From an uncultured Boseongicola sp. (GTDB lineage: Bacteria; Pseudomonadota; Alphaproteobacteria; Rhodobacterales; Rhodobacteraceae): a stretch of DNA of 64,000 nt. Positions 9,839-64,000 of this stretch are shown here, piece by piece (the first letter of the stretch is position 1; each line of letters starts with the position of its first letter). The DNA is taken from the NCBI GenBank assembly GCA_905479635.1, contig CAJQNG010000086.1, positions 134 to 64,133 of the forward strand, given 5' to 3'. A model generated the notes under the pieces. The model did no database searches. It was not told the DNA's origin and worked only from the letters and a program-made list of their open reading frames with translations. The position numbers and the translations under genes are program-made.

Positions 9839-9890
9839 ATCCCCCCAAACTAAATGTCATCGTTGACAAGTCTTCGTCAGGTTCGCAAAA

Positions 9891-9905
9891 CTGTCAACAG
9901 TTGAC
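9891..9905. promoter_or_regulatory. Putative GntR operator, copy 1
   Basis: CTGTCAACAGTTGAC (palindrome GTCAAC-A-GTTGAC) between divergent genes; related TGTCA-N4-TGACA at 9855-9868. Confidence 0.7.
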
Positions 9906-10085
9906 CGATTGGGTATGGGAGAGTTCTAATCACTGGAAAACAATATTTTCCGGACGATGTCCTTAACCATCAGAGGAAAGGATTTTTTCTATTGCAGAAA
10001 TATTTGCCACCTCTGTACCGATCAGGTTTTCAATGAAAACAAACCGACCGCCCGGAACGGGCGGCAGATAACTAGGGAGACGTTC

Positions 10086-11096: not shown

Positions 11097-11108
11097 GCAC
11101 AAAACTTC

Positions 11109-11134
11109 GGTGGCGGGCGAAAGCGCCCGCCACC
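11109..11134 (+). terminator. Intercistronic stem-loop after dctP
   Basis: Perfect 11-bp stem GGTGGCGGGCG-AAAG-CGCCCGCCACC, no U-tract. Confidence 0.7.
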
Positions 11135-11157
11135 ATCCATCGGCGATAGGCATCTCT

Positions 11158-11694
11158 GTGAAAATCATCTCCCGTATTGTCGAACGACTAGCTCTCATCA
11201 TCTTGATGATTGGTGGTGTTGGGATGTTAATGTCGATGTTCCTCGGTGTGGCCGATATCGTTGGAACTCAAGTGCTTCTGATACCAGTACCCGGCCCGCG
11301 CGAATTGACCGAAAGCACTATGGTACTCATCGTGTTTGGAGCGCTAGCTTACGCGCAAATTCGCCGCGCCCATATTCGGGTAGAGCTCGTATATTTCCAA
11401 ATGCCGCCGCGGGTGCGCGCGATAATGGACGTAATAACCGATTTGGCAGCCATCGCTTTTTTTGGATTGATCCTGTCGCAGGCCATTCCCGAAGCCCAGT
11501 ATTCCGTGCAAATTGGGGAAGCAACAGTCGGTCTAATTAGGTTCCCGCTCTGGCCTGCCCGGTTCATCCTGGCAGCTGGATGCGCCCTTATGATCATCCA
11601 ACTGATTCTGCATCTGATCGAAGATCTGATCCGCATCAAGACCGGCGAGGGGCTCGACAATGATCCGCTCGAAATCCACCAGAAAGTGGAGTGA
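11158..11694 (+). CDS. dctQ: TRAP transporter small permease
   Basis: Four hydrophobic segments, ELTE and AHIRVEL motifs; start placed at GTG downstream of the hairpin. Confidence 0.85.
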   Translation: MKIISRIVERLALIILMIGGVGMLMSMFLGVADIVGTQVLLIPVPGPRELTESTMVLIVFGALAYAQIRRAHIRVELVYFQMPPRVRAIMDVITDLAAIAFFGLILSQAIPEAQYSVQIGEATVGLIRFPLWPARFILAAGCALMIIQLILHLIEDLIRIKTGEGLDNDPLEIHQKVE

Positions 11695-11700
11695 CAGCAA

Positions 11701-44427: not shown

Positions 44428-45636
44428 ATGCCGCATGATCTGGACGAAAGTGTTCACTGGCACGAGCCGACGCGCGGACAGCGCGCCGGGTATGGAAAAT
44501 TTGACCAACCACAATCTGACTATGACAAGTTCATGGAATCCGAAGGGATTCCTGTCTTTCGTGGTATCGGCATCAAGTCAGTCTTTGACCTAGAGCTGGC
44601 GGATTGGTCTCGCATGGGCGGGCGCGGGAGCTACATTCAACTCTACGGCACAGAAGGTAAATGGGGACAGTACGTCGTCGAAGTACCGGGTGCCGGCGCG
44701 CTAAATGTTGAAAAACACCTTTACGAGGAAATCTTCCTTGTCGCCTCTGGCCGCGGCACAACAGAGGTTTGGCTTGAAGAAGGCGGAGAAAAACACGTTT
44801 TTGAGTGGCAAAAGGGGTCGCTGTTTTCGATTCCAGTGAATGCCTACCACCGGATTGTGAATGCCACGGGAGAGCCTGCGCTTTTGATTGGCGGGACGAC
44901 AGCGCCTAACTTAATGAACTTACTGGGCGACACTGATCTGATCTTCAATTGCCCATATAAAATGACAAGCCGGTTCTCGGGCACAGATGATTTCTACAAA
45001 TACAAAGAAGACCTTGAGCCTGACCCGATCCGAGGTCTTGCGATGCGACGCACCAACCTCGTGCCCGATGTCATCAATTGTGATCTGCCACTCGACAACC
45101 GCCGATCACCGGGTTGGCGTCGAGTAGAACCCTTCATGACTGGCAACAAATTCTATCTCTGGCTTGGTCAGCATGAGACTGGAAAATACTCCAAGGGCCA
45201 TGCACATACCTCAGCTGCAGTGCTGATCTGCATCAAGGGTAAAGGCTACACCTATACTTGGCCCGAACGTGCAGGCGAGACGCCGTGGGAAGATGGCAAA
45301 GGCGATCTGGTCCAGCGCGTTGACTATGAGCAATTTGGCATGGTCACGGCGGCACCGGGAGGCGAGCGTTGGTATCACCAGCATTTCAACTCTTCGCAAG
45401 AACCCTTCCGTCTAACCGCTTGGTTCGGACCGAACCACCCTACCATTGTCACGGGCCTTCCGCCGGGTGCCAAGCAGATCGACTATACCGCGATGGATGT
45501 GACCGAGGGTGGCACTTCGATTCCATACTGGATGGAAGATAAAAGGCTGCGCAGTGAGTTTGAAAAGCTGATCGGGGCCAACGGCGGCAATAGCCGCATG
45601 GATCCGAGCCTTTACGATAAGCCAGAAGTCCAGTGA
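44428..45636 (+). CDS. Bicupin protein
   Basis: Two cupin motif sets: KHLYEE..G.G...PVNAYH and HAH...GKGY...WYHQHFN; start after GGGAGG. Confidence 0.82.
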   Translation: MPHDLDESVHWHEPTRGQRAGYGKFDQPQSDYDKFMESEGIPVFRGIGIKSVFDLELADWSRMGGRGSYIQLYGTEGKWGQYVVEVPGAGALNVEKHLYEEIFLVASGRGTTEVWLEEGGEKHVFEWQKGSLFSIPVNAYHRIVNATGEPALLIGGTTAPNLMNLLGDTDLIFNCPYKMTSRFSGTDDFYKYKEDLEPDPIRGLAMRRTNLVPDVINCDLPLDNRRSPGWRRVEPFMTGNKFYLWLGQHETGKYSKGHAHTSAAVLICIKGKGYTYTWPERAGETPWEDGKGDLVQRVDYEQFGMVTAAPGGERWYHQHFNSSQEPFRLTAWFGPNHPTIVTGLPPGAKQIDYTAMDVTEGGTSIPYWMEDKRLRSEFEKLIGANGGNSRMDPSLYDKPEVQ

Positions 45637-47117
45637 ACAAGTCGATGCACCCAGACGAAACAGATGATGGTGGGCGCATCCACTTTTCGAGCGCCGGCCG
45701 CTCGCTGATCGAGGAGGACCAGATAGAACTGACAAGCGTCGGCGTTGATATCGGGTCCTCCACCTCGCACCTTTTGGTCTCGACCATCATGCTCGAACGG
45801 ATGGACACCCGATATGTCGTTACCGGCCGCGAGGTTCAATTTGAATCTGAGATTTTGTTAACGCCCTATGCCGATGGAAATACCATTGATGCCGAGGCGT
45901 TGGCAGCCTTTATCGAAGCGCAATACGCCGCTGCAGGGCTTTCATCCGAGGATATCGACACCGGTGCGCTGATCTTAACTGGCGTAGCCGCGCGACGTAC
46001 GAACGCGCGCGCCATCGGCGAGATATTCGCAGCCCAAGCCGGCAAATTCGTAGCTGTAAGTGCGGGCGACGCGCTAGAAACACTTATGGCGGCCCATGGC
46101 TCTGGTGCTGTGGCACTGTCAGAGCGGTTGGGAACAGTTCTCAACATCGACGTTGGCGGAGGCACAACCAAGATTGCATTGTGCCGTGATGGAGACATCA
46201 TCTCACGCACGGCGCTTGATGCCGGTGCGCGTCTAATTGTGACCGATGCCGACGGTCGGATTACACGGTTGGAACCTTTCGGCGCGCGGTATCTCTCCGA
46301 CGTTGACGCAGAAATCGGGTTGGGTGACGTGCTACCCGCCGACATCCGCAACAAAATAGCCAAGCAGATGGCCGCCGCGATCATTTCTGCCGCCCGTGGC
46401 GAAGAAGTTTCTGACTTTATGCGCCTTGCGCCGCTGGCCGAGGCTCCCACTTCCGGACAGATCGTTTTTTCCGGCGGCGTGTCAGAATTCTTGGACGGGA
46501 GCGGCGGAAATACAGACGATCTTGGACCAGAACTAGCGCTTGCCCTGGCTTCTTTAGTAAAAGAGCATGCATTTCAGGTCTCGCCTGCGCGTCAAGGCAT
46601 CCGTGCGACAGTCGTGGGCGCGTCGCAATATACTGTGCAAGTCTCTGGTTCGACAATCTACCTTGATCCAGATGACACATTGCCCCTCCGCAACCTCGCG
46701 GTCATCGCACCGACGGTCGTGCTGGGCGATGAGATCGACGCACAGGAGGTCGCGGCAGCAATCAAGGACGCCCTCGCCCGCCTTGATTTGCAGGACGGCG
46801 AAACGCCGGTTGCGGTCGCCGTGCCATGGACCGGTTCAGCGAGTTACGCCCGCCTTCGCGCTTTGGGCAATGGCCTTGTCACCGGCCTCACCACCATTCT
46901 TGAGAAAGGGCATCCGCTGGTGATTGTCAGTGAAGGTGACATCGGTGGTCTGATCGGCATGCAGTGCCGAAGCGAAGAGAATTGCCCCGGCGCTATCGTT
47001 TCCATTGACGGAATAGCACTATCAGAATTCGATTTCATCGATATTGGCGAGGTGTTGCGCTCCACCGGTGCCACACCAGTCGTTGTTAAATCGCTTTTGT
47101 TCCCGACGGAGCACTAA
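45633..47117 (+). CDS. EutA-like (ASKHA-fold) ATPase / reactivase homolog
   Basis: SVGVDIGSSTSH, TGALILTG, KFVAVSAG, NIDVGGGTT, FSGGVSE, IRATVVGASQYT, PVVVKSLLF. Confidence 0.85.
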   Translation: MNKSMHPDETDDGGRIHFSSAGRSLIEEDQIELTSVGVDIGSSTSHLLVSTIMLERMDTRYVVTGREVQFESEILLTPYADGNTIDAEALAAFIEAQYAAAGLSSEDIDTGALILTGVAARRTNARAIGEIFAAQAGKFVAVSAGDALETLMAAHGSGAVALSERLGTVLNIDVGGGTTKIALCRDGDIISRTALDAGARLIVTDADGRITRLEPFGARYLSDVDAEIGLGDVLPADIRNKIAKQMAAAIISAARGEEVSDFMRLAPLAEAPTSGQIVFSGGVSEFLDGSGGNTDDLGPELALALASLVKEHAFQVSPARQGIRATVVGASQYTVQVSGSTIYLDPDDTLPLRNLAVIAPTVVLGDEIDAQEVAAAIKDALARLDLQDGETPVAVAVPWTGSASYARLRALGNGLVTGLTTILEKGHPLVIVSEGDIGGLIGMQCRSEENCPGAIVSIDGIALSEFDFIDIGEVLRSTGATPVVVKSLLFPTEH

Positions 47118-47629
47118 TGAAAGAGACACCCCAAGCCCCACGCATGGTCACATCGATCTGGCCCGCCGTGCTGCTGTTGGCTTTCGCAGTAGTGATGTTC
47201 TTGATCGCGCGCGGATATTCAGCGACATCTGCGCGGTTTCCGGCAATGGTCGCGGGCGCGATGATCGTTTTAGCGGTGTTCGATGTCTGGAGCCGCTCAA
47301 AGATTCCTGGCGCTCAGGTTGTCGAAACCTTCGGCGGGACCGGCTTTCGCCAACGCGAAATGATGCATAACCCAACTTTTGCCAATCAGGCCGAATGTTT
47401 GGGTTGGATTGCTGGTGCATTCGCAATGATGGCGACAGTTGGCATTCTTGCTGCCTCTCCGATCTTTTGTGCAGCGTACGCGCGTTTACGGGGTAAACTT
47501 ACGCTTGCAGTCTCTGCTGGTGTGGGGATTGGCGTGCTGATCTTTCAGTTCGCGGTGTTTGAATGGGCACTCAATTACGAACTCTACCGAGGCCTATTCT
47601 TTACGAAGGGTGGCGTTAACGCTTGGTGA
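47117..47629 (+). CDS. tctB: Tripartite tricarboxylate transporter small subunit
   Basis: Hydrophobic, ARFP motif, precedes tctC/tctA; shares LYRGL tail with 41899-42444. Confidence 0.72.
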   Translation: MKETPQAPRMVTSIWPAVLLLAFAVVMFLIARGYSATSARFPAMVAGAMIVLAVFDVWSRSKIPGAQVVETFGGTGFRQREMMHNPTFANQAECLGWIAGAFAMMATVGILAASPIFCAAYARLRGKLTLAVSAGVGIGVLIFQFAVFEWALNYELYRGLFFTKGGVNAW

Positions 47630-47661
47630 CGACGCCAAAAAACATAGGGAGGAAGTAAAAA

Positions 47662-48621
47662 ATGAAGAAGATACTAGTAACAGGGGCGACTGCTATTGCG
47701 CTCACGGTTGGTGGGGCCGCACAGGCGGAATTCCCAACGGACGACAACATCACATTCGTAATCCCCTACAGCCCAGGCGGGGGTTTTGACACTATTGTGC
47801 GTCAATTCGCGCCAGCATTGGAAACCGCGATGGGAACAACCGTTGTACCAGAGAATATCTCAGGCGCTGGCGGCGCGCGTGGCGGACAGGCCGTTCACCG
47901 GTCCGATCCTGATGGCTATACAATCGGTATCTACAACATCCCCGGCCTGACTGTGAACGAAGTCACGGGGCGCGATCAAGGCTTCAAACTTGATGAAGTC
48001 ACATGGATCGCAAACCTTGCGGTCGCAACTTATGGGCTTGCAGTGGCAGTCGACAGCGGCATCAATTCAGTCGAAGATCTTTGTGCGATGGGGCAACCCA
48101 CAAAGCTTTCGGACACAGGTGCTACATCAACGGCATCTGTCACGACACGGATCACCTTCGGTATCCTTGAGTGTGATATTGTTGATGTTACCGGCTATGC
48201 GGGTTCCAACGACGCAATGATCGCTGTAATCAGCGGTGAAGTGAATGCGACCATCAAGCCAATCAGCTCGCTTGCAAAATACCTTGATGGCAGCGGAACC
48301 GGCGATCTGAAGTTGATCCTAACCCTAACCGAAGATGAGGCTGTAACCGGCGTCCCCTCGGCTACAGATATTGGACATCCAGAATTAGCCAAGTTCACGC
48401 TGAACCGTGTCATCGGTGGCCCTCCTGGCATGACAACTGAGGTCGTCGCCGCTATTGAAGAAGGTTTGCGCGCAGCGTCAGAAGACCCATCTGTTACCTC
48501 TTGGGCTGATGGCGCTGGCATTAGTTTGGCCTTCATGGGCGCCGCCGCAACTGCCTCTATGATGGATGATCTCAGTTCATTCTACGAGCAGTACAAAGAC
48601 CTCGCAGCAACGGCTGAATAA
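47662..48621 (+). CDS. tctC: Tripartite tricarboxylate transporter substrate-binding protein
   Basis: Signal peptide, IPYSPGGGFD, ENISGAGG, PDGYT. Confidence 0.9.
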   Translation: MKKILVTGATAIALTVGGAAQAEFPTDDNITFVIPYSPGGGFDTIVRQFAPALETAMGTTVVPENISGAGGARGGQAVHRSDPDGYTIGIYNIPGLTVNEVTGRDQGFKLDEVTWIANLAVATYGLAVAVDSGINSVEDLCAMGQPTKLSDTGATSTASVTTRITFGILECDIVDVTGYAGSNDAMIAVISGEVNATIKPISSLAKYLDGSGTGDLKLILTLTEDEAVTGVPSATDIGHPELAKFTLNRVIGGPPGMTTEVVAAIEEGLRAASEDPSVTSWADGAGISLAFMGAAATASMMDDLSSFYEQYKDLAATAE

Positions 48622-48630
48622 TAGATGTTG

Positions 48631-48654
48631 CGCGCCGCCATTTCCGGCGGCGCG
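48631..48654 (+). terminator. Intercistronic stem-loop after tctC
   Basis: CGCGCCGCC-ATTTCC-GGCGGCGCG. Confidence 0.65.
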
Positions 48655-48674
48655 TACCCCAACTGGATTTTGTC

Positions 48675-50195
48675 ATGGGTTTAGACGCGCTTTTTGAAGC
48701 CTTCCTTGCCGTCCTGAACGGGGGGAGCCTGCTTTTTTTGATGGCTGGTGTTTTGCTTGGCCTCACTTTTGGTGTGATCCCGGGGCTGGGTGGCACAACC
48801 GCACTCGCCCTTCTAATACCGGTGACCTATACGTTGGAGCCGCTTGATGCGATGTATCTGGCGGGCGGCGTTATGGGGGCCACGTCCTTTGGCGGATCAA
48901 TATCCGCGATCCTTTTAAACACGCCCGGCACGGCACCTAATGCGGCAACGACATTCGATGGCTACCCACTTGCCCGACAGGGCAAAGCCGGGCTCGCCAT
49001 TGGTGCGTCTGCGACTGCCTCCGCCCTAGGAGGGTTGATCGGTCTTTTTACCCTACTTCTATTCATTCCTGTGGCACGTGAAGTTGTTCTGAGCTTCGGC
49101 TCGTCTGAGTTTTTCCTGCTGACCATCCTTGGCCTCGCAGCTATTGCTGTTTCGGTCAAAGGTAAGCTTTTGCGCGGGTTGATTGCGGCCTGTATCGGTT
49201 TGTTGCTCGCGTTCACTGGAGCGAACCAGTTCACCGGCGAAACCCGCTTTACTGGCGGAATGAATTATCTATGGGACGGTATTCCTTTGGTCCCTGCCCT
49301 GACCGGGTTATTCGCCATAAGTCAAATGATCGAGCTTGCGCTCAAGGGTGGATCGGTGGCGGATGAAGAAACCCGCTCCGCGGCCGAGAATATGAAGATC
49401 ACAGGCGTCGGCGAAGGTATACTCGCGGTTTTCAAACACTGGCCAGTCCTATTGCGCGGGTCCCTAATCGGTACGGTCATTGGCGCCATCCCCGGGCTAG
49501 GCGGTACAGTGGCTTCGTTTCTGAGCTATTCATCAACAGCACAAACTGCCAAAGACCGCGACACCTTTGGCAAAGGCAACATCAAAGGCGTCATCGCACC
49601 AGAAGCGGCCAACAATGCAAAAGATGGCGGCTCGCTCATTCCGACGGTGGCCTTCGGCATTCCCGGAAGCGCAGAGACTGCCGTGTTCCTTGGCATACTT
49701 GTGCTGCACGGGATCGAACCAGGTCCCCAAATCCTGCTGCAAAACGAGCGAGAGATTTATGGCTTGATCGTCGCGCTTACGGTTTCGGCGATTGGTGCGT
49801 CCGTACTCGGCCTCATCTTTGCGCGCTTCCTTGTGCTGATTACTCGGATTGATGTGAACATCGTTGTGCCGGTGGTGGTGACGCTGTCACTGACAGGCGT
49901 TTATGTCCTCGAAGGACGTATGGCCGACGTCGCCGTCGCAACGATTATCGGGATATTCGGCTATCTGATGATCCGCTTTGACTATCCTCGACTGACGTTG
50001 GTCATCGCCTTCGTTCTGGGCGAAATCGCAGAGCGGTCCTATCATCAGGTACGCCTCATTTCCGACGGTAACGTTCTGGAGTATATGCTCGGCCGGCCGA
50101 TTTCTGTCATTTTGATTGTTGCGACTATTGTGACGTTCTTCTTACCCGCCATGCGCAAAATACCATGGCGCCGTCTGACCGGGAGCGCATCGTGA
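48675..50195 (+). CDS. tctA: Tripartite tricarboxylate transporter large permease
   Basis: GVIPGLG, NTPGT...DGYP, APEAANNA, GIPGS. Confidence 0.92.
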   Translation: MGLDALFEAFLAVLNGGSLLFLMAGVLLGLTFGVIPGLGGTTALALLIPVTYTLEPLDAMYLAGGVMGATSFGGSISAILLNTPGTAPNAATTFDGYPLARQGKAGLAIGASATASALGGLIGLFTLLLFIPVAREVVLSFGSSEFFLLTILGLAAIAVSVKGKLLRGLIAACIGLLLAFTGANQFTGETRFTGGMNYLWDGIPLVPALTGLFAISQMIELALKGGSVADEETRSAAENMKITGVGEGILAVFKHWPVLLRGSLIGTVIGAIPGLGGTVASFLSYSSTAQTAKDRDTFGKGNIKGVIAPEAANNAKDGGSLIPTVAFGIPGSAETAVFLGILVLHGIEPGPQILLQNEREIYGLIVALTVSAIGASVLGLIFARFLVLITRIDVNIVVPVVVTLSLTGVYVLEGRMADVAVATIIGIFGYLMIRFDYPRLTLVIAFVLGEIAERSYHQVRLISDGNVLEYMLGRPISVILIVATIVTFFLPAMRKIPWRRLTGSAS

Positions 50196-50800: not shown

Positions 50801-51121
50801 TTAAGGGGCCTCGATGACAACAGCGGTCTCATGAGGCAAAATCTTGTATGTCTTGATCGCAACGAGACAAGGAGGCGCCACGACCTCTCCGTCGCGGATA
50901 TCAAATTTTCCTTGGTGGAAGTCACACTCGATTACGTGACCTTCAAGATAGCCCTCTGACAATTCACCCGGTCCGTGGGTACAGGCGTTGTCGGTCACGT
51001 AGAATGTGCCTTCGACCTGGTAAACGGCCAGCTCCAAATCGCCATGGTCAACGCGGATAACTTCGCCATCGGGCACATCGTCCTTGGCACAGATTTCGAT
51101 CTGATTATTCGCTTCGGTCAT
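50801..51121 (-). CDS. Rieske [2Fe-2S] ferredoxin (dioxygenase ferredoxin type)
   Basis: CTH...LSEG...IECDFHQGKFD...PPC. Confidence 0.92.
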   Translation of the reverse strand: MTEANNQIEICAKDDVPDGEVIRVDHGDLELAVYQVEGTFYVTDNACTHGPGELSEGYLEGHVIECDFHQGKFDIRDGEVVAPPCLVAIKTYKILPHETAVVIEAP

Positions 51122-51202
51122 TGTCACCCCTGTCTTTCTTCATCGCATAGCCCGCTAAATTTAACGCAGGACCAGTCAAGGGAAACCCGTCGATCCGAAC
51201 GC

Positions 51203-51269: not shown

Positions 51270-51872
51270 ATGGATGATAAAAAAGACACCCCCGAAGCCG
51301 AGGCTGAAATTGGCCCGGCAGGATATTACCACAGCCAGAAGGACCGCATTTTTGTGCGCGCCATCCAAGGCGAATATAACCTGCAATGGGAGCTGGACCG
51401 CGTGCGGGCCATGCCCCGGGTCCGTAAAGCCAAAGACATCAAATTCGTGGATGGCCCGCAGGCCTATTCACGCCACTATGTGGAACCAAAGGACGGGATC
51501 AGCCAGCTGTTCCACCTGCACTTGGAAGAATATGGGCCTGGTGGCAAAAGCCAAAAGCACGGGCATGTAAATGAGGCCGCCTTCTATATCCTTGATGGTG
51601 AGGGATACGAAATCCACGACGATATTCGCTATGACTGGAAGGCAGGAGATGTGGCCATCGTTCACAACAACTGCGTCCACCAGCATTTCAACGCCTCTGA
51701 CACCAAACCGGCGCGCGCACTTGTACTAAAGACTAAGCCGATGTTCGTCTTTATGAATATGTTGTTCCAGAAAACGGTCGAGCCGCGCGACACCTTCCCC
51801 GCCCCTGGCGGTGAGAATTTCGAAGTGCGTGAGGAAGAAGAAGATCACAACCATCCTAAGGAGGGTTACTGA
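51270..51872 (+). CDS. Cupin protein
   Basis: KHGHVNEA..YILDGEG...WKAGD...VHQHFN. Confidence 0.85.
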   Translation: MDDKKDTPEAEAEIGPAGYYHSQKDRIFVRAIQGEYNLQWELDRVRAMPRVRKAKDIKFVDGPQAYSRHYVEPKDGISQLFHLHLEEYGPGGKSQKHGHVNEAAFYILDGEGYEIHDDIRYDWKAGDVAIVHNNCVHQHFNASDTKPARALVLKTKPMFVFMNMLFQKTVEPRDTFPAPGGENFEVREEEEDHNHPKEGY

Positions 51873-52474
51873 TGGCATGGGATGAAACCACCAGCTGGCT
51901 TGATGGAATCGAAAACCAACCTTTGTACCAAGATCTTCTCGATGACGCCGCCGCCCGCCCCGCGCGGGACGCGGAACGTAAGAAGGTCGTACACCCGCAT
52001 GAAATGCCGTGGGACATGTCGCGTCAGGGGCTGCTCAAACACCTGATCAATGAGAGTATGAACACCCGAATGGAAACGGTTGATGCCTACATGCAGATCG
52101 TCCCACCGGGATCGAAATCTGGCAAGCACCGGCATCTGGCGGAAGAGTGCCTCTATGTTGTTGAAGGCAAGGGCTACGACCTGCATCAAGATTGCGATGT
52201 CGAGATCACCGACACCTATTTCTGGAAACCACAGGATAAGGTTTCACGCTGGGATTATGAGGCGGGCGACGTGATCTATGTGCCGCCAAACACGATCCAC
52301 CAGCACTTTAACGCGGAGCTAGACAAACCGCTGCGGCTTATTTCCTGCATCAACCGGATTTTCAAACAATGCGGTTTGAACGATCTTGAGCAGATCGAAG
52401 ATGCCCCGGAGTATGATCCTGACGTCACACTGACCCCGGACCTGATCCGTGAGTTCCTGCGCGGGAAACCCTGA
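51872..52474 (+). CDS. Cupin protein
   Basis: KHRHLAEE.LYVVEGKG...AGDVIYVPPNTIHQHFN; TGATG coupling. Confidence 0.85.
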   Translation: MAWDETTSWLDGIENQPLYQDLLDDAAARPARDAERKKVVHPHEMPWDMSRQGLLKHLINESMNTRMETVDAYMQIVPPGSKSGKHRHLAEECLYVVEGKGYDLHQDCDVEITDTYFWKPQDKVSRWDYEAGDVIYVPPNTIHQHFNAELDKPLRLISCINRIFKQCGLNDLEQIEDAPEYDPDVTLTPDLIREFLRGKP

Positions 52475-53814: not shown

Positions 53815-54834
53815 CTACTTTCCGCGCAGCTTCAAGGCGGCATCAAGGCGTGGATAAACCCGTCTAGCATTGCCCTCATACACTTTCGCACGATCCGCAT
53901 CAGACAAATCTAAGGCATCGACATAGCGTTTGGTATCATCGAAGTTATGGCCAGTTTCGGGATCAACACCCTTCACAGCCCCGAACATCTCTGATGCAAA
54001 CAGGATATTCTCGATGTCGATCACCTTAAACAGACAATCGATGCCGGGCTGATGGTAGACGCAGGTGTCGAAGTAGACATTACGCATCACATGCTCTGTC
54101 AATGGCGGCTTGCCCATCATGTCGGCCAAACCCCGGTACCGCCCCCAGTGATAGGGCACAGCCCCGCCACCATGAGGAATGATCAGGCGCAGATCAGGGA
54201 AATCTGCAAACAGATCACCCTGCAGAAACTGCATAAACGCAGTGGTGTCCGCGTTGATGTAATGCGCCCCGGTCATGTGGAAATTCGGATTGCACGACCC
54301 AGAAACGTGGATCATCGCAGGTACATCAAGTTCGACCATTTTCTCAAAAAACGGATACCACGCGCGGTCGGTCAACGGCACTCCGGTCCACATTCCACCA
54401 CTTGGATCGGGGTTCAGGTTACAGCCCACAAATCCTAATTCCGTGACACAGCGATCCAATTCCTCAATGGCATTGGCGATAGGCACGACGGGATTCTGAG
54501 GCAACTGACAGACGCCAATGAAGTTGTCCGGGAATAGCTGCGTCACCCGATGGATCAAATCGTTGCTGTGCCGCGTCCAGATTTTCGAGACAGCCTCATC
54601 GCCGATATGGTGCCCCATGCCAGAGGCACGAGGGCTAAAGATCGTCATATCCGCCCCGCGATCTTTCAGTGCTTGAAGCTGGTTGGCCTCAACGCTTTCT
54701 CGGATGTCATCATCAGAGATGTCAGGGAAGGCTGGCATCTGGGCGCTGGCATCGAAGGCGGCAACTTGTGCCTTGCGGAAGTCCATGAACGGCTTTGGCT
54801 CAGTTGTGTAGTGCCCGTGGCAATCAATGATCAT
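53815..54834 (-). CDS. ligJ: 4-oxalomesaconate hydratase
   Basis: MIIDCHGHYTT, FSPRASGMGHH, CQLPQ, NPDPSGG, HGGGAVPYHWGRYRG. Confidence 0.92.
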   Translation of the reverse strand: MIIDCHGHYTTEPKPFMDFRKAQVAAFDASAQMPAFPDISDDDIRESVEANQLQALKDRGADMTIFSPRASGMGHHIGDEAVSKIWTRHSNDLIHRVTQLFPDNFIGVCQLPQNPVVPIANAIEELDRCVTELGFVGCNLNPDPSGGMWTGVPLTDRAWYPFFEKMVELDVPAMIHVSGSCNPNFHMTGAHYINADTTAFMQFLQGDLFADFPDLRLIIPHGGGAVPYHWGRYRGLADMMGKPPLTEHVMRNVYFDTCVYHQPGIDCLFKVIDIENILFASEMFGAVKGVDPETGHNFDDTKRYVDALDLSDADRAKVYEGNARRVYPRLDAALKLRGK

Positions 54835-55529
54835 TGGCCGGTCTCCCATTCCGCTTGGCTTAGGTAAGTCAGCCCCTTATCCTTAAGGCGTCCACGCATG
54901 TTGTTTACGTCCAGCCCCAGCTCTCCGGCTTGATATTTTGCTCGCGCCAATTCCTCTTTTTCGACCCGTGCTTGCGATGCTGCAACAACCGCGCCTGCCT
55001 GCAGACGCGGCACAACTACAACTCCGTCGTCGTCCGCCACGATCACGTCTCCAGGCCGGACAATTTCATCACCGCAGGACACGGGAACATTCACATCACC
55101 CAGCACTTCTTTTACTGTGCCGTGGGCCGAGATTGAGCGTGACCAGACCGGAAAGCCCAAAGCCTCAAGATCGCGGATATCCCGACACCCTGCATCCAAG
55201 ATCAGGCCGGTGACGCCGCGCGCTTTCAGGCAGGTACCCAAAAGATCCCCGAAGTATCCAGAATGCGACTCTGAAATCGTCGCTGCAACAAGAACATCGC
55301 CCGGTTGGCATTGCTCCACCGCTACGTGGATCATCCAGTTATCGCCAGGGGCAAGAGTGCACGTCACCGCCGTTCCGCTGATCGCAGCCCCCTTATAGAT
55401 CGGGCGTAATCTATGATGCATCAGTCCCGTCCGCCCCTGCGCCTCGTGCACAGTGGCTACGCCGTATTGCGCTAAAGCCTTCGCGGCTTGCGGGTCAGCA
55501 CGTTTGATATCAGTTACGACGACTGGCAT
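54831..55529 (-). CDS. ligK: 4-carboxy-4-hydroxy-2-oxoadipate (HMG/CHA) aldolase
   Basis: GVATVHEAQGR, PGDNWMIHVAVE, YFGDLL, DAGCRD, ADDDGVV. Confidence 0.92.
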   Translation of the reverse strand: MPVVVTDIKRADPQAAKALAQYGVATVHEAQGRTGLMHHRLRPIYKGAAISGTAVTCTLAPGDNWMIHVAVEQCQPGDVLVAATISESHSGYFGDLLGTCLKARGVTGLILDAGCRDIRDLEALGFPVWSRSISAHGTVKEVLGDVNVPVSCGDEIVRPGDVIVADDDGVVVVPRLQAGAVVAASQARVEKEELARAKYQAGELGLDVNNMRGRLKDKGLTYLSQAEWETGQ

Positions 55530-55542
55530 GGCGGCTCCATTT

Positions 55543-56517
55543 TCAAGCATTTTCACGGGTGCTGCAGCGCGCAAACCCGTCATTCAATTCTTTGCGGTCA
55601 AGGTTGCGCCCAATCACAACCAAGCGCGAGGATCGGGCGTCCTTCAACCACGCAGCGCCAAGATCACCCTCGTACATCATATGGACAGATTGGACGATGA
55701 CGCGACGGTCTTGACCTTTGACATCCAGAACACCTTTGAGGCGCAAGATATCTTCACCACGCAGCATCAACAAGCGTTCGAGCCAGGCTTCAAGCGCGTC
55801 ATCATCAAACGGATCTTGCGTTTCGAGTGTGATGCATTCAATCCCATTGGCCGCGACATGATCATGATGCCCTCCGGTATCGCCCAAGTCCTGTGCGATC
55901 CGGTCTAAAGAAAAGCTCTGTGTTCCCAAGATATAGGCGGGATCGATCTGGCCGCGATCAATACGATGAATATCTGCATGTGGGTTCAGACCACGCAGCA
56001 CTGCTTCAATCGCGTCTGGTTCTGTGGCATCCGACACCTTGTTGAGCACTATTACACTGGCCAAAGCGACCTGATCGGCGGCGTCCGCGCTGTCCTCAAG
56101 ACGTGCCGTGATATGGGCAGCGTCAACGACGGTTACAACCGCATCGAGCCGTGAGAGGCCAGCAATAAGCTGATCGGCGCTAAAGGTCTGGATCACCGGG
56201 CTTGGGTTTGCAACGCCGGTTGTCTCGATCAAAATCCCATCCAGCGCCACGTCCCGCTTGAGCAAGTCGCGCAACGTCCGAATAAGGTCACCCCGAACGA
56301 CACAGCACAGACAGCCAGAAGAGAGTTCGATCAACTCCTCTTCCCCGGTCTCGATCAGATCGCCATCAATCCCAATGTCGCCAAATTCATTGACGATAAC
56401 CGCAAACTTGCGCCCATGATCGCCTTTCAGGATATGGTTCAACAGCGTGGTCTTTCCCGCCCCCAAATAGCCCGTGACAACCGTCACTGGCACGCGATTG
56501 TCGACAGCTACATCCAT
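55543..56517 (-). CDS. CobW/COG0523 metallochaperone GTPase
   Basis: [26 protein letters not shown], short His patch GHHDH. Confidence 0.92.
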
Positions 56518-57723: not shown

Positions 57724-58017
57724 ATGTTCGGACATCGAAACATCTCATCCGCGACAATTGTCGACCTTGAACGGATAGAGGCAACCGTCAGGTCACGCTA
57801 CAACGTGCCGGACGACCAGATCGTCCTGGTTACCCAGGAACAAACGCGGATACTGGGCGGTCCGGAGAAAATGACTACGATCCTGTTTTGGATCGACGCA
57901 GAGACGCGCAATAAAGTGCGCGTTTTCAAACCGGCCGCCGATGTCCATTCCAAGGACTTGCCCCCTACATGGCTGCGCAGCGCACTCCTGGATGATGTAT
58001 TGGCGGAGTGCTGTTAG
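57724..58017 (+). CDS. Small hypothetical protein ending in Cys-Cys
   Basis: 97 aa ORF fills the gap between operator and next gene; FW...VFKP...DLPP.W...CC. Confidence 0.6.
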   Translation: MFGHRNISSATIVDLERIEATVRSRYNVPDDQIVLVTQEQTRILGGPEKMTTILFWIDAETRNKVRVFKPAADVHSKDLPPTWLRSALLDDVLAECC

Positions 58018-58024
58018 GAAAATT

Positions 58025-58966
58025 ATGAGCAAACGAACATTGAGAACGGTCACCCGCGCCCAAGGCAACAACCGCGCCCTCAAGGCCGGAGAGATCACAT
58101 TGCCAGACTTCGCTCTGGACTTCGAAGAGGTCAATCCCCTGCCCCGCGCCTTCCGCAACATGGTCCGCGAGCAGGCCTATGACGTTAGCGAAATGGCTCT
58201 GACCACCTATATCACTGCGCGCGCCTACGGTGTCCCAATCACGGCGATCCCGGTGTTCTTGGTGCGTGACTTTCACCATAAGTCGATCGTCAAGTCCCTC
58301 AAAGCGACCATAACACAGCCTAAGGATCTCGAAGGCCGCCGCGTCGGTGTGAGCCGCGGCTATACGGTCACAACTGGTGTCTGGGCGCGGGCCATTCTAG
58401 CGGAGGAATACGGCGTCGATCTATCCCAAATCACTTGGGCGCGTTCCGACGACGAACACGTTTTGAACTGGCGCATACCTGCCCATGTTGAGGATCTGGG
58501 CGGCGAAGGCAGCTTGGACGACCAGCTTGCACGCGCTGACATCGACGCAGCGGTCGGCTTGGTTGAAAGTAACGCGACGCGCTCACTTATCACGGACCCG
58601 TTTGCGGCAGGGCTAGCCGCCCTCAAATCGCGCGCGTTCTACCCGATCAACCATCTGGTTGTGGTGCGCGATGACCTCTTGAAAGAGGTCCCCGATATTG
58701 CCGTGCAAGTGTTCGAGGCTTTTAGTGCCTCGAAGCGTGCCTACCTGACAGACTTAAAAGCCGGACGCATCACTGCACCTACCGCAGCCGACAATACCTA
58801 TCTTGCCGCGTTAGAGGTCATGGACGATCCGCTGCCATACGGCCTCGCACCAAATGCCGACACGCTGAACAAACTTGTGGACCATGTCGTGGCGCAAGGC
58901 ATCATCGATGCGGTCATCCCGCTTGAAGATCTATTTGCGCCTGGGTCGCACGAGCTTGTGGGTTAG
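58025..58966 (+). CDS. 4,5-dihydroxyphthalate decarboxylase-like protein
   Basis: YDVSEMA, AIPVFLVRDFHH, DLEGRRVG..GYTVT..VW.R, YPINHLVVVR, PYG. Confidence 0.8.
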   Translation: MSKRTLRTVTRAQGNNRALKAGEITLPDFALDFEEVNPLPRAFRNMVREQAYDVSEMALTTYITARAYGVPITAIPVFLVRDFHHKSIVKSLKATITQPKDLEGRRVGVSRGYTVTTGVWARAILAEEYGVDLSQITWARSDDEHVLNWRIPAHVEDLGGEGSLDDQLARADIDAAVGLVESNATRSLITDPFAAGLAALKSRAFYPINHLVVVRDDLLKEVPDIAVQVFEAFSASKRAYLTDLKAGRITAPTAADNTYLAALEVMDDPLPYGLAPNADTLNKLVDHVVAQGIIDAVIPLEDLFAPGSHELVG

Positions 58967-59818: not shown

Positions 59819-60634
59819 CTACCTCCCCGGCTGTCCTTTGATCTGACGCCCAGACCGGACATCCTCAGCACATTCAGACAATGCGTCGTGAATAGTGCGC
59901 GCAATATTGGCATAGCCCGACGGTTCTTTATCAAGCGCGGCCACGTTATAGCCAACCGCCGCCTGCGCCAGCCGGACACGGCCATCCAACCAGGGACCAC
60001 CACCGAAGCCGCCGATCACCGGGATTGAAACGGCCTCGACCACCTTTGGGCCGATCACTGGGCCGGAGTTGGTGAAATCCAAAAGAACCGCGCCTGCAGC
60101 CTCCATCGCCTTGGCCTCAGCAATCAAACGCGCCTCCATGCCGGGCGCAGCCTCTGTAGCATCCGCTTGATTTTCATATGGAATCCCTGTCGCAAGGGCG
60201 GTTTGCGGCGTCAAGCCAAACTGCGCCCAGACCGGAATACCCGCACGGGTCAGCGCCTCAACTGCCTCCGGGTAGTCGGCCGCGCCATCAAGCTTCAGCA
60301 GGTCAATCCCCGCCTCCTTGACCAGACGGATTGCCGCCCGAAGGGCGCTATCCACACCTTCTTGCAAGGGCCCGTATGGGAAATCCGCCGACACCAGCGC
60401 GCGTTTAACACCGCGCCGCACCGCTTTGGTCACTATTATCATTTCGTCCATGGTGATCTCAAACATCGTGTCGTGGCCCCATAGGTTTTTGCCCACGGTA
60501 TCGCCGACCGACACGATATCAGCGCCAACACGGTCCGCAATCGCCGCCATATGGGTGTCCCAGGCGACAACGCCAAAAATCTTCTCACCCTTTTGTTTCT
60601 TCCGATGAAGATCGGGGATTGTGACTTTCGTCAT
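59819..60634 (-). CDS. Divergent PanB-like (ketopantoate hydroxymethyltransferase family) protein
   Basis: SVGDT, ITMDEMI, ADFPYG, KLDGA, FGLTPQ, IPVIG. Confidence 0.78.
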   Translation of the reverse strand: MTKVTIPDLHRKKQKGEKIFGVVAWDTHMAAIADRVGADIVSVGDTVGKNLWGHDTMFEITMDEMIIVTKAVRRGVKRALVSADFPYGPLQEGVDSALRAAIRLVKEAGIDLLKLDGAADYPEAVEALTRAGIPVWAQFGLTPQTALATGIPYENQADATEAAPGMEARLIAEAKAMEAAGAVLLDFTNSGPVIGPKVVEAVSIPVIGGFGGGPWLDGRVRLAQAAVGYNVAALDKEPSGYANIARTIHDALSECAEDVRSGRQIKGQPGR

Positions 60635-61617
60635 ATGACGAATTCCTCATAAGTTTCGGGAGCAAACATCTCATCAACTTCCAACTTGCGCGGTGAGAGG
60701 CCCTGTTCATGGTGATACCGCAGGAAAACATCCAACGTGGCGCGGTTTTTTTCCACGCCGTAAGGCCAAAAATCTTCGCCCATCAGATCGAACGCCTCTT
60801 CCACATGGGCGTTGAACCACGGCAACATTCCCTTAAGCGCCGCCGTTTCCTTAAGCCCGGCGTAGCAAAGGTTCTGTGCTTCACGAAACGCCTTGAACAG
60901 GTTCATCGCAACCCAGCGATTCTGCTCATAAACTTCGCGGCGGATCGCGATCACATGCATGATTGGAAAGATACCCGTGTCACGCCAATAGGCCTTTTCG
61001 ACCTCGACATAATTCGGGAACAAGCGCTTCACGCGCACCCCGTCATAGGTAGATGGCTTGCGCGCCGTATGGAAAGCGTCGATCCGGCCGTCTGCAAGCA
61101 TCTGCGCCAAGGTATCTTCCGGCCCGATCCGCTCTAACCGGAAGTTATCGGGCAACTCAATGCTGATTTTTTCCTCACGGTTTGGCGTTTCTTCGCCCCC
61201 CGTCACATAGGTTGGCCCGTCTACTGGAACACCGTAATGCTCGGACAGAATGCCTCTGATCCACACTGGCGCTGTCATTTGGTATTCAGGACAACCGAAC
61301 CGTTTACCGATCAGATCCTTGGGCTCGTTGACCCCTGCATCCGCATTCACATAGATGCAGGAATGCCGAAAGAATCGCGACGGGAACACCGGGATCGCCA
61401 CAAACGGCCGGTCTTGCTTGAAGTGCGAAACCACAAAGGACGACATCGACATTTCCGAGACGTCAAATTCCCGGAATTTCGCCATCCGAAAGAACGTCTC
61501 TTCGACGATCATATTGAGGAAGCGCAAATCAATGCCATCAGGCCGCACCCGGCCATCCATCAACGGTTGGACACGGTCATAGTCCCAACAGCCAAGAGTC
61601 ATTGATAATCTAGTCAT
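60631..61617 (-). CDS. 4,5-dihydroxyphthalate decarboxylase family protein
   Basis: WDYDRV..L.DGRV, EETFFR, FDVSEMSMSS, PVFPSRFFRH, PEYQMTA, IFPIMH, WPYG. Confidence 0.85.
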   Translation of the reverse strand: MTRLSMTLGCWDYDRVQPLMDGRVRPDGIDLRFLNMIVEETFFRMAKFREFDVSEMSMSSFVVSHFKQDRPFVAIPVFPSRFFRHSCIYVNADAGVNEPKDLIGKRFGCPEYQMTAPVWIRGILSEHYGVPVDGPTYVTGGEETPNREEKISIELPDNFRLERIGPEDTLAQMLADGRIDAFHTARKPSTYDGVRVKRLFPNYVEVEKAYWRDTGIFPIMHVIAIRREVYEQNRWVAMNLFKAFREAQNLCYAGLKETAALKGMLPWFNAHVEEAFDLMGEDFWPYGVEKNRATLDVFLRYHHEQGLSPRKLEVDEMFAPETYEEFVI

Positions 61618-61632
61618 AGTTCGCCCCTGGGC

Positions 61633-62622
61633 TTAGTAAAATTCGTCAAAGTGAAGCTGGTCCTGCGGGACGCCAGCTTCATGGGTCATCTTTTGGACGG
61701 CTGCGGACATGATAGCTGGCCCTGCGAAATAGATTTCGCAGTCTTTCAATGCAGCCCCCATATCCTCAAAAACCACGTCATGCAGATAGCCCTTCGGGCC
61801 GGTCCAAGTGGCATCTGGTTCGGATAGCGCGGCCACGAACCGCGCCGCCCCCGCCGCCTCTGCGCCAAGGACTGTCGCGTCGCAAAGATCACTCACGTCC
61901 CGACCACCATAGAACACATGCAATTTGCGCGTGCCCAGCATCCCTGCCTTGGCTACGCCTTTTGCGATTGATACAATTGGCGAGAGACCCGAGCCGCCAG
62001 CCAACAGCACGATATCACGCGGGCTATCTTCGCGCAGAAATGCAGTCCCGTAAGGTCCATCAATGGTGATCTTCGCACCCAGTTCTGACTCAAACAGCTG
62101 CCCCGTCGCCGCACCGCTTGGCATCTGTTTGATCATGAACTGCCACGTGCCGCCTGCACCAAGGTTGGACATCGAATAAGCCCGCGCGCCAGTAACGCCC
62201 GGAACATGAAGCAAAGCGTATTGTCCCGGGCGAAAGAACGGCACAGCATCGGCTTGGAACATGAATTGAGAAATATCGTGAGTGATCTTTTCGATCCCAG
62301 TCAGCTCTGCTTCAAAGGATTCAGGCCGATTGTAAGGCACATATTGATCCATGGCGCGGAACTTAACACTGCAGTCCCCGTTCGGAACGGCCTGACACCC
62401 CAACCAACGACCACGCTTTAGCTCGCGTTCTGACCATGCCGGCGCATCGTCACGCAAGTGCGTGACCTCACCGTCCAACAGTTGGAACCGGCAATTGCCG
62501 CATGACCCGGTATTGCAGGAATACGGCATGCCAATCCCTGCACGCAAAGCTGCGCGCAGGATTGTATCGCCTTCTTCGCAGTCGAATACATGCCCATCAG
62601 GGGTTTGAGTGATTGTGGGCAT
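61633..62622 (-). CDS. [2Fe-2S]-FAD-NAD(P)H oxygenase reductase
   Basis: PYSCNTGSCGNC...LGCQ, RAYS, GPYG, AGGSGLSP, FAGP, HFDEF. Confidence 0.92.
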   Translation of the reverse strand: MPTITQTPDGHVFDCEEGDTILRAALRAGIGMPYSCNTGSCGNCRFQLLDGEVTHLRDDAPAWSERELKRGRWLGCQAVPNGDCSVKFRAMDQYVPYNRPESFEAELTGIEKITHDISQFMFQADAVPFFRPGQYALLHVPGVTGARAYSMSNLGAGGTWQFMIKQMPSGAATGQLFESELGAKITIDGPYGTAFLREDSPRDIVLLAGGSGLSPIVSIAKGVAKAGMLGTRKLHVFYGGRDVSDLCDATVLGAEAAGAARFVAALSEPDATWTGPKGYLHDVVFEDMGAALKDCEIYFAGPAIMSAAVQKMTHEAGVPQDQLHFDEFY

Positions 62623-62635
62623 ATGTGGTTTCCGA

Positions 62636-63469
62636 TCAAACGTAGATGGGCTGGCGCAAGACATAGCCCATGCGCTGCGAAATTTCGTTCGCGGCTCCAG
62701 TCACCACCGGGGCAAGCTTGGGCACCTGAGCTTTTTTGATCCGAATACGCGGGCCCGCAACACCGACAGCTGCAACAAGTCGCCCTTCTGCATTGTAGAT
62801 CGGCGCCGCGACACAGCGCGTACCCTCATCGCAGTATTCGTCTTCAAAGGCATATCCGCGCCGCTTCACTTGGCGCAGCGATTGCAGAAATTCGTCTTTG
62901 TCGGTGATGGTATTGGGCGCACGCACGTCCCTTGGATACTGCAGGAATGTCTCCAGATCCGGCGCGCGCAATCCGGAAAGCAGGCAAAGCCCCTCTGCGG
63001 TGCAAAAAGCAGGTTTCAACTGCCCTGTGGCGGATCGAATGCGCAACGCCTGCGGGCTTTCTAAATCATGTAAGAACACAACGCTTTGACGGTCCAAAAC
63101 TGCAAGACGCACATTTTCCTGCGTTTTTTCGCGCAAGACATTCAGGATAGTCTTCGACTCATTTGTAACATCCAACCGCGAGCGCACTAAAGCCCCAAGC
63201 GAGAAAAGCCCCACACCAAGGCCGTAGCGACCACTCTCTGGGTCTTGCTGCAAAAGACCTTCATCCAACAGCGCGCCGGCAAGGCGGTGAACAGTACTTT
63301 TTGCAACGTTCAACCGCTTTGCAAGCTCGCTGATGCCAAGTGTTTCATCTTCTTCAGTGAATGTCTTCAAAAGATGAATCGCCGTTGTTACAGAAGACAG
63401 CCGCGATGCATTACGTCGTGGATTGCGGTTGATTTCTTTCCGTAATGGCCGCGGTACGTCATCAGTCAT
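62636..63469 (-). CDS. IclR family transcriptional regulator
   Basis: LGISELAKRLNVAKSTVHRL HTH, CTAEG, RRGYAF, CVAAPI; start moved to MTDDV downstream of operator. Confidence 0.92.
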   Translation of the reverse strand: MTDDVPRPLRKEINRNPRRNASRLSSVTTAIHLLKTFTEEDETLGISELAKRLNVAKSTVHRLAGALLDEGLLQQDPESGRYGLGVGLFSLGALVRSRLDVTNESKTILNVLREKTQENVRLAVLDRQSVVFLHDLESPQALRIRSATGQLKPAFCTAEGLCLLSGLRAPDLETFLQYPRDVRAPNTITDKDEFLQSLRQVKRRGYAFEDEYCDEGTRCVAAPIYNAEGRLVAAVGVAGPRIRIKKAQVPKLAPVVTGAANEISQRMGYVLRQPIYV

Positions 63470-63482
63470 TGCAAAGCGCCCT

Positions 63483-63507
63483 GTTCCATAAGGAAGAACT
63501 GCGTTCC
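63483..63507. promoter_or_regulatory. Putative IclR operator, site 6 (autoregulatory)
   Basis: GTTCC-ATAAGGA-AGAAC-TGC-GTTCC directly upstream of the IclR gene. Confidence 0.7.
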
Positions 63508-63544
63508 ACTCTTGCGGTCGGACGACCAACTGTCAACTGGTTGC

Positions 63545-64000
63545 TCAGATGTCATTATAATCGCTTTTCGGGAGGCTATGATGATGGTGATCTGAGCCAG
63601 TGGGTGGGGAAAACTGTATCCGATCCTGCCGGCGCGCGCCACGCGGATCGTCGGAAAACAGCAGGGATTTGACGGTGACAGGCACCGTGAAGGACGGCAG
63701 GCGTATTTTGCCCAGATCAATATAATCGAAATCACGTAAGCTTATGCCGTCCAATATCAGCAGATCGTTCTCAACACCAAGATCCTCTCGCAGGATACCC
63801 CCGAGCGTTTGCGCTATGTCCCCGTCGATCATCACATAAAGCCCCTGCCCGGCGGCAATACGGCCGGACAGAGCAGCTTGGATACCATCGGCCAATGCGC
63901 GAATGCGGGCGTATTCCGGCACCGTCTGGAATTCGAACGCCAGAACGACTTCGTGTTGAACTGGGTCCAGGTCAAAAGCTTCAAAATGCGCTTGGATCGC
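63545..64000 (-). CDS. Second EutA-like protein, 5'-truncated by window edge, His-rich tail
   Basis: Frame open to 64000; YARIRALA, GDIA..LG, DGISL..FDYIDLG, PVTVKSLLF align with 45633-47117; ends SDHHHH. Confidence 0.82.
   Translation of the reverse strand, partial: AIQAHFEAFDLDPVQHEVVLAFEFQTVPEYARIRALADGIQAALSGRIAAGQGLYVMIDGDIAQTLGGILREDLGVENDLLILDGISLRDFDYIDLGKIRLPSFTVPVTVKSLLFSDDPRGARRQDRIQFSPPTGSDHHHHSLPKSDYNDI

Follow-up and report, generated by a model that had tools for sequence, protein, structure and literature searches.

The EutA-like gene and its partner

The 64,000 nucleotides (nt) analysed here, from contig CAJQNG010000086.1 of an uncultured Boseongicola sp. and called the window throughout, carry a gene for a EutA-like ATPase of the ASKHA type. 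It lies directly behind a gene for a two-barrel cupin protein, bicupin 1, and the stop of the bicupin gene overlaps the start of the ATPase gene by 4 nt (Table 1). We refer to the ATPase as the clade I protein, after its place in the tree described below; a divergent copy, belonging to clade II, lies at the end of the window. The clade I protein represents a real and widespread variant within a known family, so far undescribed, and its client is probably new. In the open-access literature (subscription journals and bioRxiv supplements were outside the scope) no EutA-cupin pair and no ASKHA metal chaperone was found described.

The clade I protein consists of an ASKHA core, at about residues 30-342, and an extra C-terminal domain that runs to about residue 490. 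It matches the Pfam family EutA (PF06277) over residues 32-490 with 351 bits, and the clade II paralog scores 371 bits, the cut-off being 27. A previous sequence-only reading of this DNA had described both ASKHA phosphate loops as intact, and this is correct: DIGSST and DVGGGT were both located, together with Glu149 in the connect-1 segment and a GGV motif. From what is known of Hsp70 and actin we assume that Glu149 has a catalytic role.

A structure predicted from an alignment of 8 sequences has a mean predicted local distance difference test score (pLDDT) of 72, with values below 50 at residues 1-27, 336-353 and 464-494. Residues 30-342 of the model align with ASKHA proteins, and HgdC-type activators top the Foldseek list. 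In a wide structure search exopolyphosphatases, activators, kinases and the diol dehydratase reactivating factor were bunched at Z 16.4-19.8. Because several ASKHA families are nearly tied in this way, the structure matches tell us about the fold only, and not about the function. Sequence searches of the PDB gave no close solved relative for either the ATPase or the bicupin.

Table 1. Features of the window discussed in the text, the ATPase and bicupin genes first.
Feature	Position	Strand	Remarks
Clade I EutA-like ASKHA protein	45633..47117	+	494 amino acids, GTG start (list of open reading frames)
His-free N-terminal arm of clade I ATPase, GGRIHFSSAGRSLIEEDQI	45669..45725	+	low pLDDT in monomer model
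Phosphate-1 loop DIGSST	45747..45764	+	Asp39 retained in 149/152 non-eut homologs
Glu149, connect-1 segment	46077..46079	+	retained in 151/152 non-eut homologs and 5/5 canonical EutA
Phosphate-2 loop DVGGGT	46149..46166	+	Asp173 retained in 152/152 non-eut homologs
GGV motif of clade I ATPase	46473..46481	+	present
Bicupin 1	44428..45636	+	402 amino acids from ATG 44428 (ORF-finder start 44377)
Three-His site, C-terminal barrel of bicupin 1	45199..45384	+	HAH 45199-45207, HQH 45376-45384
Clade II paralog, C-terminal 151 amino acids	63545..64000	-	HHHH at 63578-63589
TctB, TctC, TctA, tripartite tricarboxylate transporter	47117..50195	+	TctB start overlaps ATPase stop by 1 nt
Rieske ferredoxin	50801..51127	-	Pfam/NCBIfam profiles
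Pair of single cupins	51270..52474	+	200 amino acids each, related to the bicupins
Amidohydrolase_2 protein and LigK aldolase	53815..55583	-	LigK exceeds NCBIfam cut-off; lower aromatic ring-cleavage pathway
CobW/COG0523-family GTPase	55543..56517	-	candidate metallochaperone; 205 bits vs CobW cut-off 332
IclR regulator, 2Fe-2S/FAD reductase, unassigned 328-residue protein	60631..63529	-	after clade II ATPase

The partner bicupin

The model of the bicupin (pLDDT 92) has a bicupin fold with a three-His HxH...HxH site in the C-terminal barrel. The residues H258, H260, H317 and H319 are retained in at least 90% of 104 aligned homologs, and in a profile comparison they align with the HRH and HEH motifs of 3bu7. 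The top structure matches are the gentisate and salicylate 1,2-dioxygenases 3bu7, 2phd and 2d40 (Z 20.1, 19.8 and 19.6; root mean square deviation (rmsd) 5.9, 5.0 and 3.4), followed by oxalate decarboxylase (Z 18.4) and quercetinases (17.1-17.2), and in the Foldseek ranking MncA and oxalate decarboxylase are on top. The best profile match is also gentisate dioxygenase 3bu7 (E 1.4e-8), with the HxH...HxH pattern in common, but the identity to the solved gentisate and salicylate dioxygenases is only 9-13%. No NCBIfam family matched bicupin 1 or bicupin 2 (the second bicupin of the cluster, described below) at E 1e-8, and the look-alikes in a structure atlas were generic cupin clusters only. It is likely, from its fold and conserved histidines, that the bicupin is a metal enzyme.

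In the profile comparison the N-barrel of the bicupin best matches the C-barrel of 3bu7. The His-bearing C-barrel matches, weakly, the 3bu7 N-barrel, so a swap of the domain order is possible.

Conserved pairing of ATPase and bicupin

A genome scan gave 477 confirmed relatives (601 stretches), and the best 80 of these were compared. They come from Alpha-, Beta- and Gammaproteobacteria, Chloroflexota, Acidobacteriota, Binatia, Rokubacteria, Armatimonadota and others, and a bicupin homolog is present in 73 of the 80 loci. Fifty of the relatives' genomes, of unstated completeness, were searched whole and further copies were fetched with their flanks, which gave 163 distinct open reading frames; after 6 truncated ones had been dropped, the tree contained 157 proteins, 152 from outside eut loci (non-eut) and 5 canonical EutA. 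A cupin gene is directly adjacent to 114 of the 152 non-eut genes and within 4 kb of 122, and in clade I it is directly adjacent in 55 of 62. The search was also made in reverse, from the bicupin, in 79 metagenome loci, and a EutA-like gene was next downstream in 47 of the 66 that had room for one. Of 151 evenly sampled genomes of the family the same 3 carry both genes, and one more has a partial single-barrel match only. Among 401 genomes of the phylum the bicupin was found only in the window genome, and not in the 4 that have a eutB-linked EutA.

The two partners also appear to have diverged together. For 104 pairs of neighbouring genes, with one bicupin counted in two pairs, the distance matrices of ATPases and bicupins correlate with 0.85, and in 98 of the pairs the closest bicupin outside the genome itself is of the same ATPase clade. 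Furthermore, when two multi-copy genomes were compared, the nearest ATPase and the nearest bicupin shared a module in 1,932 of 2,741 cases, against 1,199 by chance, though these comparisons are not independent of each other and linked genes share their history anyway. The results show ATPase and bicupin as old cognate modules, which is not proof of physical contact. It is likely that bicupin 1 is the client of the clade I ATPase; the new client that the sequence-only reading had postulated thus has a candidate, given the conserved adjacency, the reverse search and the cognate clades.

No fusion of the ATPase to a cupin was found among the longer proteins in a weak search (7,992 scored). Four EutA homologs (P0262, P0271, P0272 and P0273, in separate clusters, one of them from a Pseudonocardiaceae genome) carry a C-terminal MFS transporter. 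In locus L084 the EutA-like reading frame (8843-12094) continues for about 190 residues beyond the usual end, with what we take to be a CoxG/SRPBCC-like domain, and the homolog P0268 has an N-terminal extension of about 200 amino acids with no Pfam match and no His arm. Two EutA-like genes are in two pieces, G178:C18:8213-9420 and G188:C53:114094-115614, and the former lies 47 nt from the sole NicO gene of its genome.

It is conceivable that the ATPase acts in sensing, in regulation or as a scaffold, and so ties the pathway to metal or ligand status, for instance together with IclR or the Tct and MFS transporters, and that the bicupin is a binding protein and not an enzyme. The four MFS fusions and the 1-nt overlap with TctB would fit this, and so would the finding that 15 of 24 clade II genomes have an IclR gene no farther than 6 kb away. 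However, no DNA-binding or membrane domain was found in the ATPases, the transporter neighbours vary while the bicupin is constant, and the bicupin retains a dioxygenase-type His site, and we regard such a role as quite unlikely.

Relation to EutA and other activators

Our description of EutA follows PMC5821096 and PMC9426561; the former describes an ATP-driven removal of the damaged cofactor from a B12 enzyme. The clade I protein has the whole-length two-domain family (PF06277, PRK10719) in common with EutA of E. coli and Salmonella and is 33-34% identical to the E. coli protein. The ATP-site residues are the same, and they are nearly invariant in both the canonical and the cupin-linked groups. 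In contrast to canonical EutA, the cupin-linked genes occur in 1-9 copies per genome, are paired with a bicupin and have no eutBC or microcompartment genes; the cupin-linked clades also have an N-terminal arm, His-rich in most of them, which the 4 canonical proteins that were scored lack. Both copies from the window miss the cut-offs of four NCBIfam EutA equivalog models, with best scores of 291.5 and 310.8 bits as compared to 598.

The sequence-only reading had proposed that these genes are decoupled from ethanolamine utilisation, and the gene content agrees with this. In the window genome, which is 70.8% complete, neither EutB nor a microcompartment shell protein was found, and a tblastn search with 9 other E. 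coli Eut proteins gave no match. Other Eut proteins had no match in any of the best 80 loci, eutB and eutC were found in none of 79 loci picked by the bicupin, and EutB is present in 1 of the 50 whole-searched genomes. A eutB gene lies near none of the 152 non-eut copies as compared to 5 of 5 canonical ones. In a quick tree of 33 rows the 28 cupin-linked proteins are split from the 5 eutB-linked ones with an SH-like approximate likelihood ratio (SH-aLRT) of 99, and in the FastTree tree of 157 rows the support for the split is 0.83. Thus the cupin-linked proteins do not group with eutBC-linked EutA, the canonical sample here being small, 5 proteins from Pseudomonadota only, with one long branch among them. 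The claim that eut and microcompartment genes are missing stands for the 70.8% of the genome that is covered; the claim that cobalamin genes are missing too has to be qualified, as the window contains a CobW-family GTPase and two B12-binding-domain matches lie on other contigs of the genome.

Since the Pfam family, the fold and the motifs are those of EutA, and the equivalog cut-offs, the client and the branch are not, the clade I protein is, judged by its sequence, a member of the EutA structural family and probably not a reactivase of ethanolamine ammonia-lyase. An orphan yet true reactivase, acting on ethanolamine ammonia-lyase or on another B12 enzyme encoded elsewhere, would agree with the full-length Pfam match and the 34% identity to E. 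coli EutA, and the incomplete genome with its two B12-binding domains could hide its client. The rarity of EutB in the whole-searched genomes, the scores below all four NCBIfam cut-offs, the separate branch and the strict pairing with the bicupin make this explanation very improbable.

The diol dehydratase reactivating factor (2d0o) and the HgdC/BadG activators (1hux, 4eht, 9gai) are likewise ASKHA ATPases that act on a client enzyme. They match the clade I protein with Z 16.4-17.6 and rmsd 4.0-4.6 for 233-249 aligned residues, on a level with the scores of exopolyphosphatases and kinases. The clade I ATPase, unlike the diol dehydratase reactivating factor, has no B12 client. The HgdC/BadG activators have conserved cysteine ligands for a 4Fe-4S cluster; a 4Fe-4S activator was considered and rejected, as the clade I protein has three cysteines, of which Cys184 is found in 82 of 152 homologs and the others in 26 and fewer.

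A very divergent EutA was observed at L185 (G460:C6, about 3526185-3527573), with 29% identity to the E. coli protein, beside a EutB-like gene of 38% identity; the 14-kb locus gave no EutC match.

Histidine arms and nickel genes

The paralog at the window end was said to be divergent and to carry an HHHH tail. This is real, and the tail belongs to a complete gene for 559 amino acids which extends past the window on contig C86 (63678-65357; L001:1679-3358) and is 37.8% identical to the clade I copy over 479 amino acids. The clade II paralog has His-rich arms at both ends, the N-terminal His/Asp arm being encoded outside the window. The window genome has exactly two EutA-like copies above the Pfam cut-off, and a recent duplication can be ruled out as their origin, since both sit in old clades that span phyla.

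An N-terminal arm is present in every cupin-linked clade (7 of the 157 rows were not scored). An HxH motif within 45 residues before the phosphate-1 loop was found in 80 of 86 proteins of clades II-IV, and in none of 60 clade I and none of 4 canonical proteins. In clade II the arm has a position-specific HxH..DHDH motif (18 of 22), and 19 of the 22 also have at least four His in the C-tail. Clade I has instead the pattern F[SAT]..R..E in its arm, in 57 of 60 proteins as compared to 0 of 86 in the other cupin-linked clades and 0 of 4 in canonical EutA.

A gene for a NicO-family nickel/cobalt transporter is present in 34 of the 50 genomes, in 25 of them above the cut-off. In 13 of the 34 it lies within 5 kb of a EutA-like gene, where random placement would give 0.38, and in 10 it is the sole copy. 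About three arrangements were observed. In clusters of the Rhodobacterales type the distance is 3.4 kb. In Rhodospirillaceae the NicO gene immediately follows a clade III gene, and in three Burkholderiales genomes (G159, G164, G171) it immediately follows a clade II gene, accompanied by NikR and a CobW-type GTPase. The NikR gene of these three is the only one in its genome and lies some 0.9 kb away from the clade II gene, the CobW-type GTPase being next to it, and urease is encoded on other contigs. In 11 genomes or loci a GTPase of the COG0523 family occurs as a separate neighbour. The metal-handling role that had been suggested as a possibility is supported by His arms, on the other clades, and by NicO, NikR and CobW neighbours.

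The pattern that we assume for a NikR box, as we wrote it, gave no match in 7 loci. In L157 (about 5765-5792), just before the NicO-type gene, there is a palindrome which by eye looks like a NikR operator, going by the consensus as we presume it to be, and which the scripted pattern did not match.

Copy numbers

The 50 whole-searched genomes, which were picked by likeness to clade I, contain 130 EutA-like genes, 1-9 each, as compared to at least 398 bicupin matches, and the two numbers correlate (Spearman 0.87). In 11 genomes the bicupins outnumber the ATPases at least threefold, with up to 21 against 2, and in two genomes there are 40 or more bicupins. This excess fits better with a factor that serves several clients than with a fixed subunit, though not in every lineage. 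Expansions from 15 to at least 40 bicupins with 2-9 EutA-like genes were seen in G172, G181, G182, G185, G187, G188, G190, G191, G199 and G200, mostly Chloroflexota and Binatia and some Alphaproteobacteria.

The copy numbers also bear on the possibility that ATPase and bicupin together carry out an ATP-dependent catabolic step, either as two subunits or as enzymes acting one after the other, in which the ASKHA protein would phosphorylate or activate the substrate and the bicupin would cleave, hydrolyse or carboxylate it; hydantoinase- and oxoprolinase-type enzymes are a model for this. The overlapping genes and cognate clades are what one would expect, the cluster is catabolic, ASKHA kinases and phosphatases are among the best structure matches, and the two copy numbers are equal in 18 of the 50 genomes. 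The threefold excess in 11 genomes speaks against it, and so do the ATP-site motifs, which are near those of EutA, whose client is a protein. It gives no role to the His arms or to the NicO, NikR and CobW neighbours, and the four best fusions (from the weak search) join the ATPase to an MFS transporter and none to a cupin. A catabolic step of this kind is the main rival to the role proposed below, and we hold it to be rather doubtful.

The sequence-only reading had further proposed that the two copies form a heterodimeric ATPase. In such a dimer the His-armed clade II subunit could bring the metal and the clade I subunit dock on the clients. Of 52 genomes with clade labels 40 have both kinds, so that 40 of the 44 clade I genomes also have a His-armed copy; 21 of 22 whole-searched clade II genomes have a clade I copy, at least two copies are present in 40 of the 50 genomes, and there is a consistent difference between the two arms, clade I being without His. 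These counts are from genomes selected by clade I likeness, and even so 8 of the 52 have His-armed copies only, among them the 95% complete G050, and 4 have clade I only. The second copy is of clade II, III or IV depending on the genome, each with its own bicupin clade, and in the window genome the two genes are 16 kb apart in separate operons. An obligate heterodimer is thus not supported as a rule, and we consider it unlikely, though it is possible that clade I depends on a His-armed partner.

The proposed role

The explanation that we prefer, with a probability of about one half, is that the clade I ATPase is an ATP-driven factor which loads, refreshes or reactivates the metal of the bicupin, possibly nickel or cobalt. 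The clade I ATPase would hydrolyse ATP and bind its client briefly to open the active site, as EutA does with ethanolamine ammonia-lyase. A metal ion could then be inserted into, or exchanged at, the opened bicupin site, as a counterpart of the cofactor exchange by EutA. The His arm of clade II may carry the incoming or outgoing ion, and the His-free arm of clade I may dock on its own bicupin. The matured bicupins would cleave or decarboxylate aromatic acids imported by Tct and so feed the LigK pathway.

The nickel chaperones UreG/UreE, HypB, CooC and COG0523 resemble the proposed factor in that they combine the use of nucleoside triphosphates with His-rich metal-binding tracts and linkage to nickel transporters or NikR. 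UreG, HypB, CooC and COG0523 are P-loop proteins, whereas the clade I ATPase has the ASKHA fold and not a P-loop. A narrower form of the proposal would be the first nickel insertase of the ASKHA fold: a widespread EutA-derived family whose His arms load or exchange Ni(II) in a large, uncharacterised family of nickel bicupins, with 40 or more copies per genome in Chloroflexota and Binatia, that cleave rings during the breakdown of aromatic matter. This is tentative, and we would sooner doubt it than rely on it. A precedent for a nickel-containing cupin dioxygenase is described in PMC4416304.

Several observations weigh against a metal-loading role. PMC4416304 also states that QueD gains activity in a cell-free system with Ni2+ present. 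Nineteen of the 66 bicupin loci have no ATPase directly downstream, 11 of 24 clade II genes are not next to a cupin, and the equal copy numbers in 18 genomes fit a fixed subunit pair equally well. The gentisate and salicylate dioxygenases use Fe(II), and we know of no ATPase partner or maturase for them. The clade I copy itself has no His arm, and because of this the carriage of metal is argued from its paralogs. The NicO gene is more than 5 kb away or on another contig in 21 of the 34 genomes and missing in 16 of the 50, and the 13 linked genomes are not 13 independent cases, since they belong to about three related groups. The syntenic cluster of G024 has no NicO gene, and the NicO-like protein of the window genome scores 27.6 against a cut-off of 27.7. 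Other possible nickel users in this genome are urease and hydrogenase-type matches, and the nickel could be for another enzyme of the cluster.

To our knowledge all EutA-type reactivases described so far assist B12 enzymes. A client that is a metal enzyme without B12 would, if true, widen the range of EutA-type ATPases, and if the bicupin-linked forms are the older ones, the repair of B12 enzymes by EutA would have arisen from an ancestral remodelling of metal sites. If the metal is nickel, it would mean a new fold for nickel insertion and a new group on the short list of nickel enzymes. Thousands of annotations as 'ethanolamine utilisation protein EutA' would also need correction if this is true; 7,961 of 8,000 scored candidates pass E 1e-10, and among the best 120 all names shown are EutA-type. 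The bicupins are hugely expanded in uncultured organisms that degrade aromatic matter, and on expression they may be active only together with their ATPase. The idea is directly testable, since the loci include those of cultured bacteria, Brevirhabdus pacifica DSM 27767 (L025) and Ensifer sp. IC3342 (L089).

Genes around the pair

The cluster reads, from its gene content, as one for aromatic-acid catabolism. In addition to the genes in Table 1, where we presume the Amidohydrolase_2 protein to be LigJ-like, it contains a thiamine pyrophosphate (TPP) enzyme, class II aldolases, a shikimate dehydrogenase and a QuiC-like dehydratase, and a syntenic cluster is present in G024. Just outside the window, bicupin 2, 31% identical to bicupin 1, is divergent from the clade II ATPase gene and is followed by a LigXa-type Rieske oxygenase, a 193-residue protein and a NicO-like transporter (bicupin 2 to transporter, L001:3454-7374), and then by a His-rich protein of 140 amino acids and two permeases. 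The 193-residue protein (L001:5990-6571) recurs in 11 genomes and has no Pfam or NCBIfam match, and the same lack of a match applies to two conserved proteins at L001:7387-7809 (the 140-residue one, with a His-rich tail end) and at 57724-58017 in the window.

The single-cupin pairs are possibly further clients of the ATPases. A second such pair lies at L001:8922-10097; each pair resembles a split bicupin and is conserved in G024 and other loci.

Three paralogous proteins of 330-370 amino acids (57941-58966 and 60631-61617 in the window, and L001:11135-12256) have at most weak NMT1/THI5 matches, and a homolog of them is found in 19 of 80 loci; we take them to resemble 4,5-dihydroxyphthalate decarboxylase. 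Other recurrent neighbours, no farther than 6 kb from EutA-like genes, are a two-domain ABC permease in 11 genomes, UbiD-family decarboxylases in 10 and ornithine-cyclodeaminase-like proteins in 9. The clustering of neighbours was partly spoiled by shadow reading frames that merged into one big component, and the clean clusters alone were used. Among metatranscriptome contigs the best run covers 20 kb evenly, including intergenic DNA, as carry-over of DNA would, and the others gave scattered short pieces; neither speaks for expression or co-transcription of the genes.

The first part of the window (1-28716) is a separate catabolic region with five polysaccharide-deacetylase-like genes, three MmgE/PrpD genes, two PEP-mutase-like genes, two isochorismatases, a racemase, a nitrilase-family gene and a nitroreductase-methyltransferase fusion (8462-9838).

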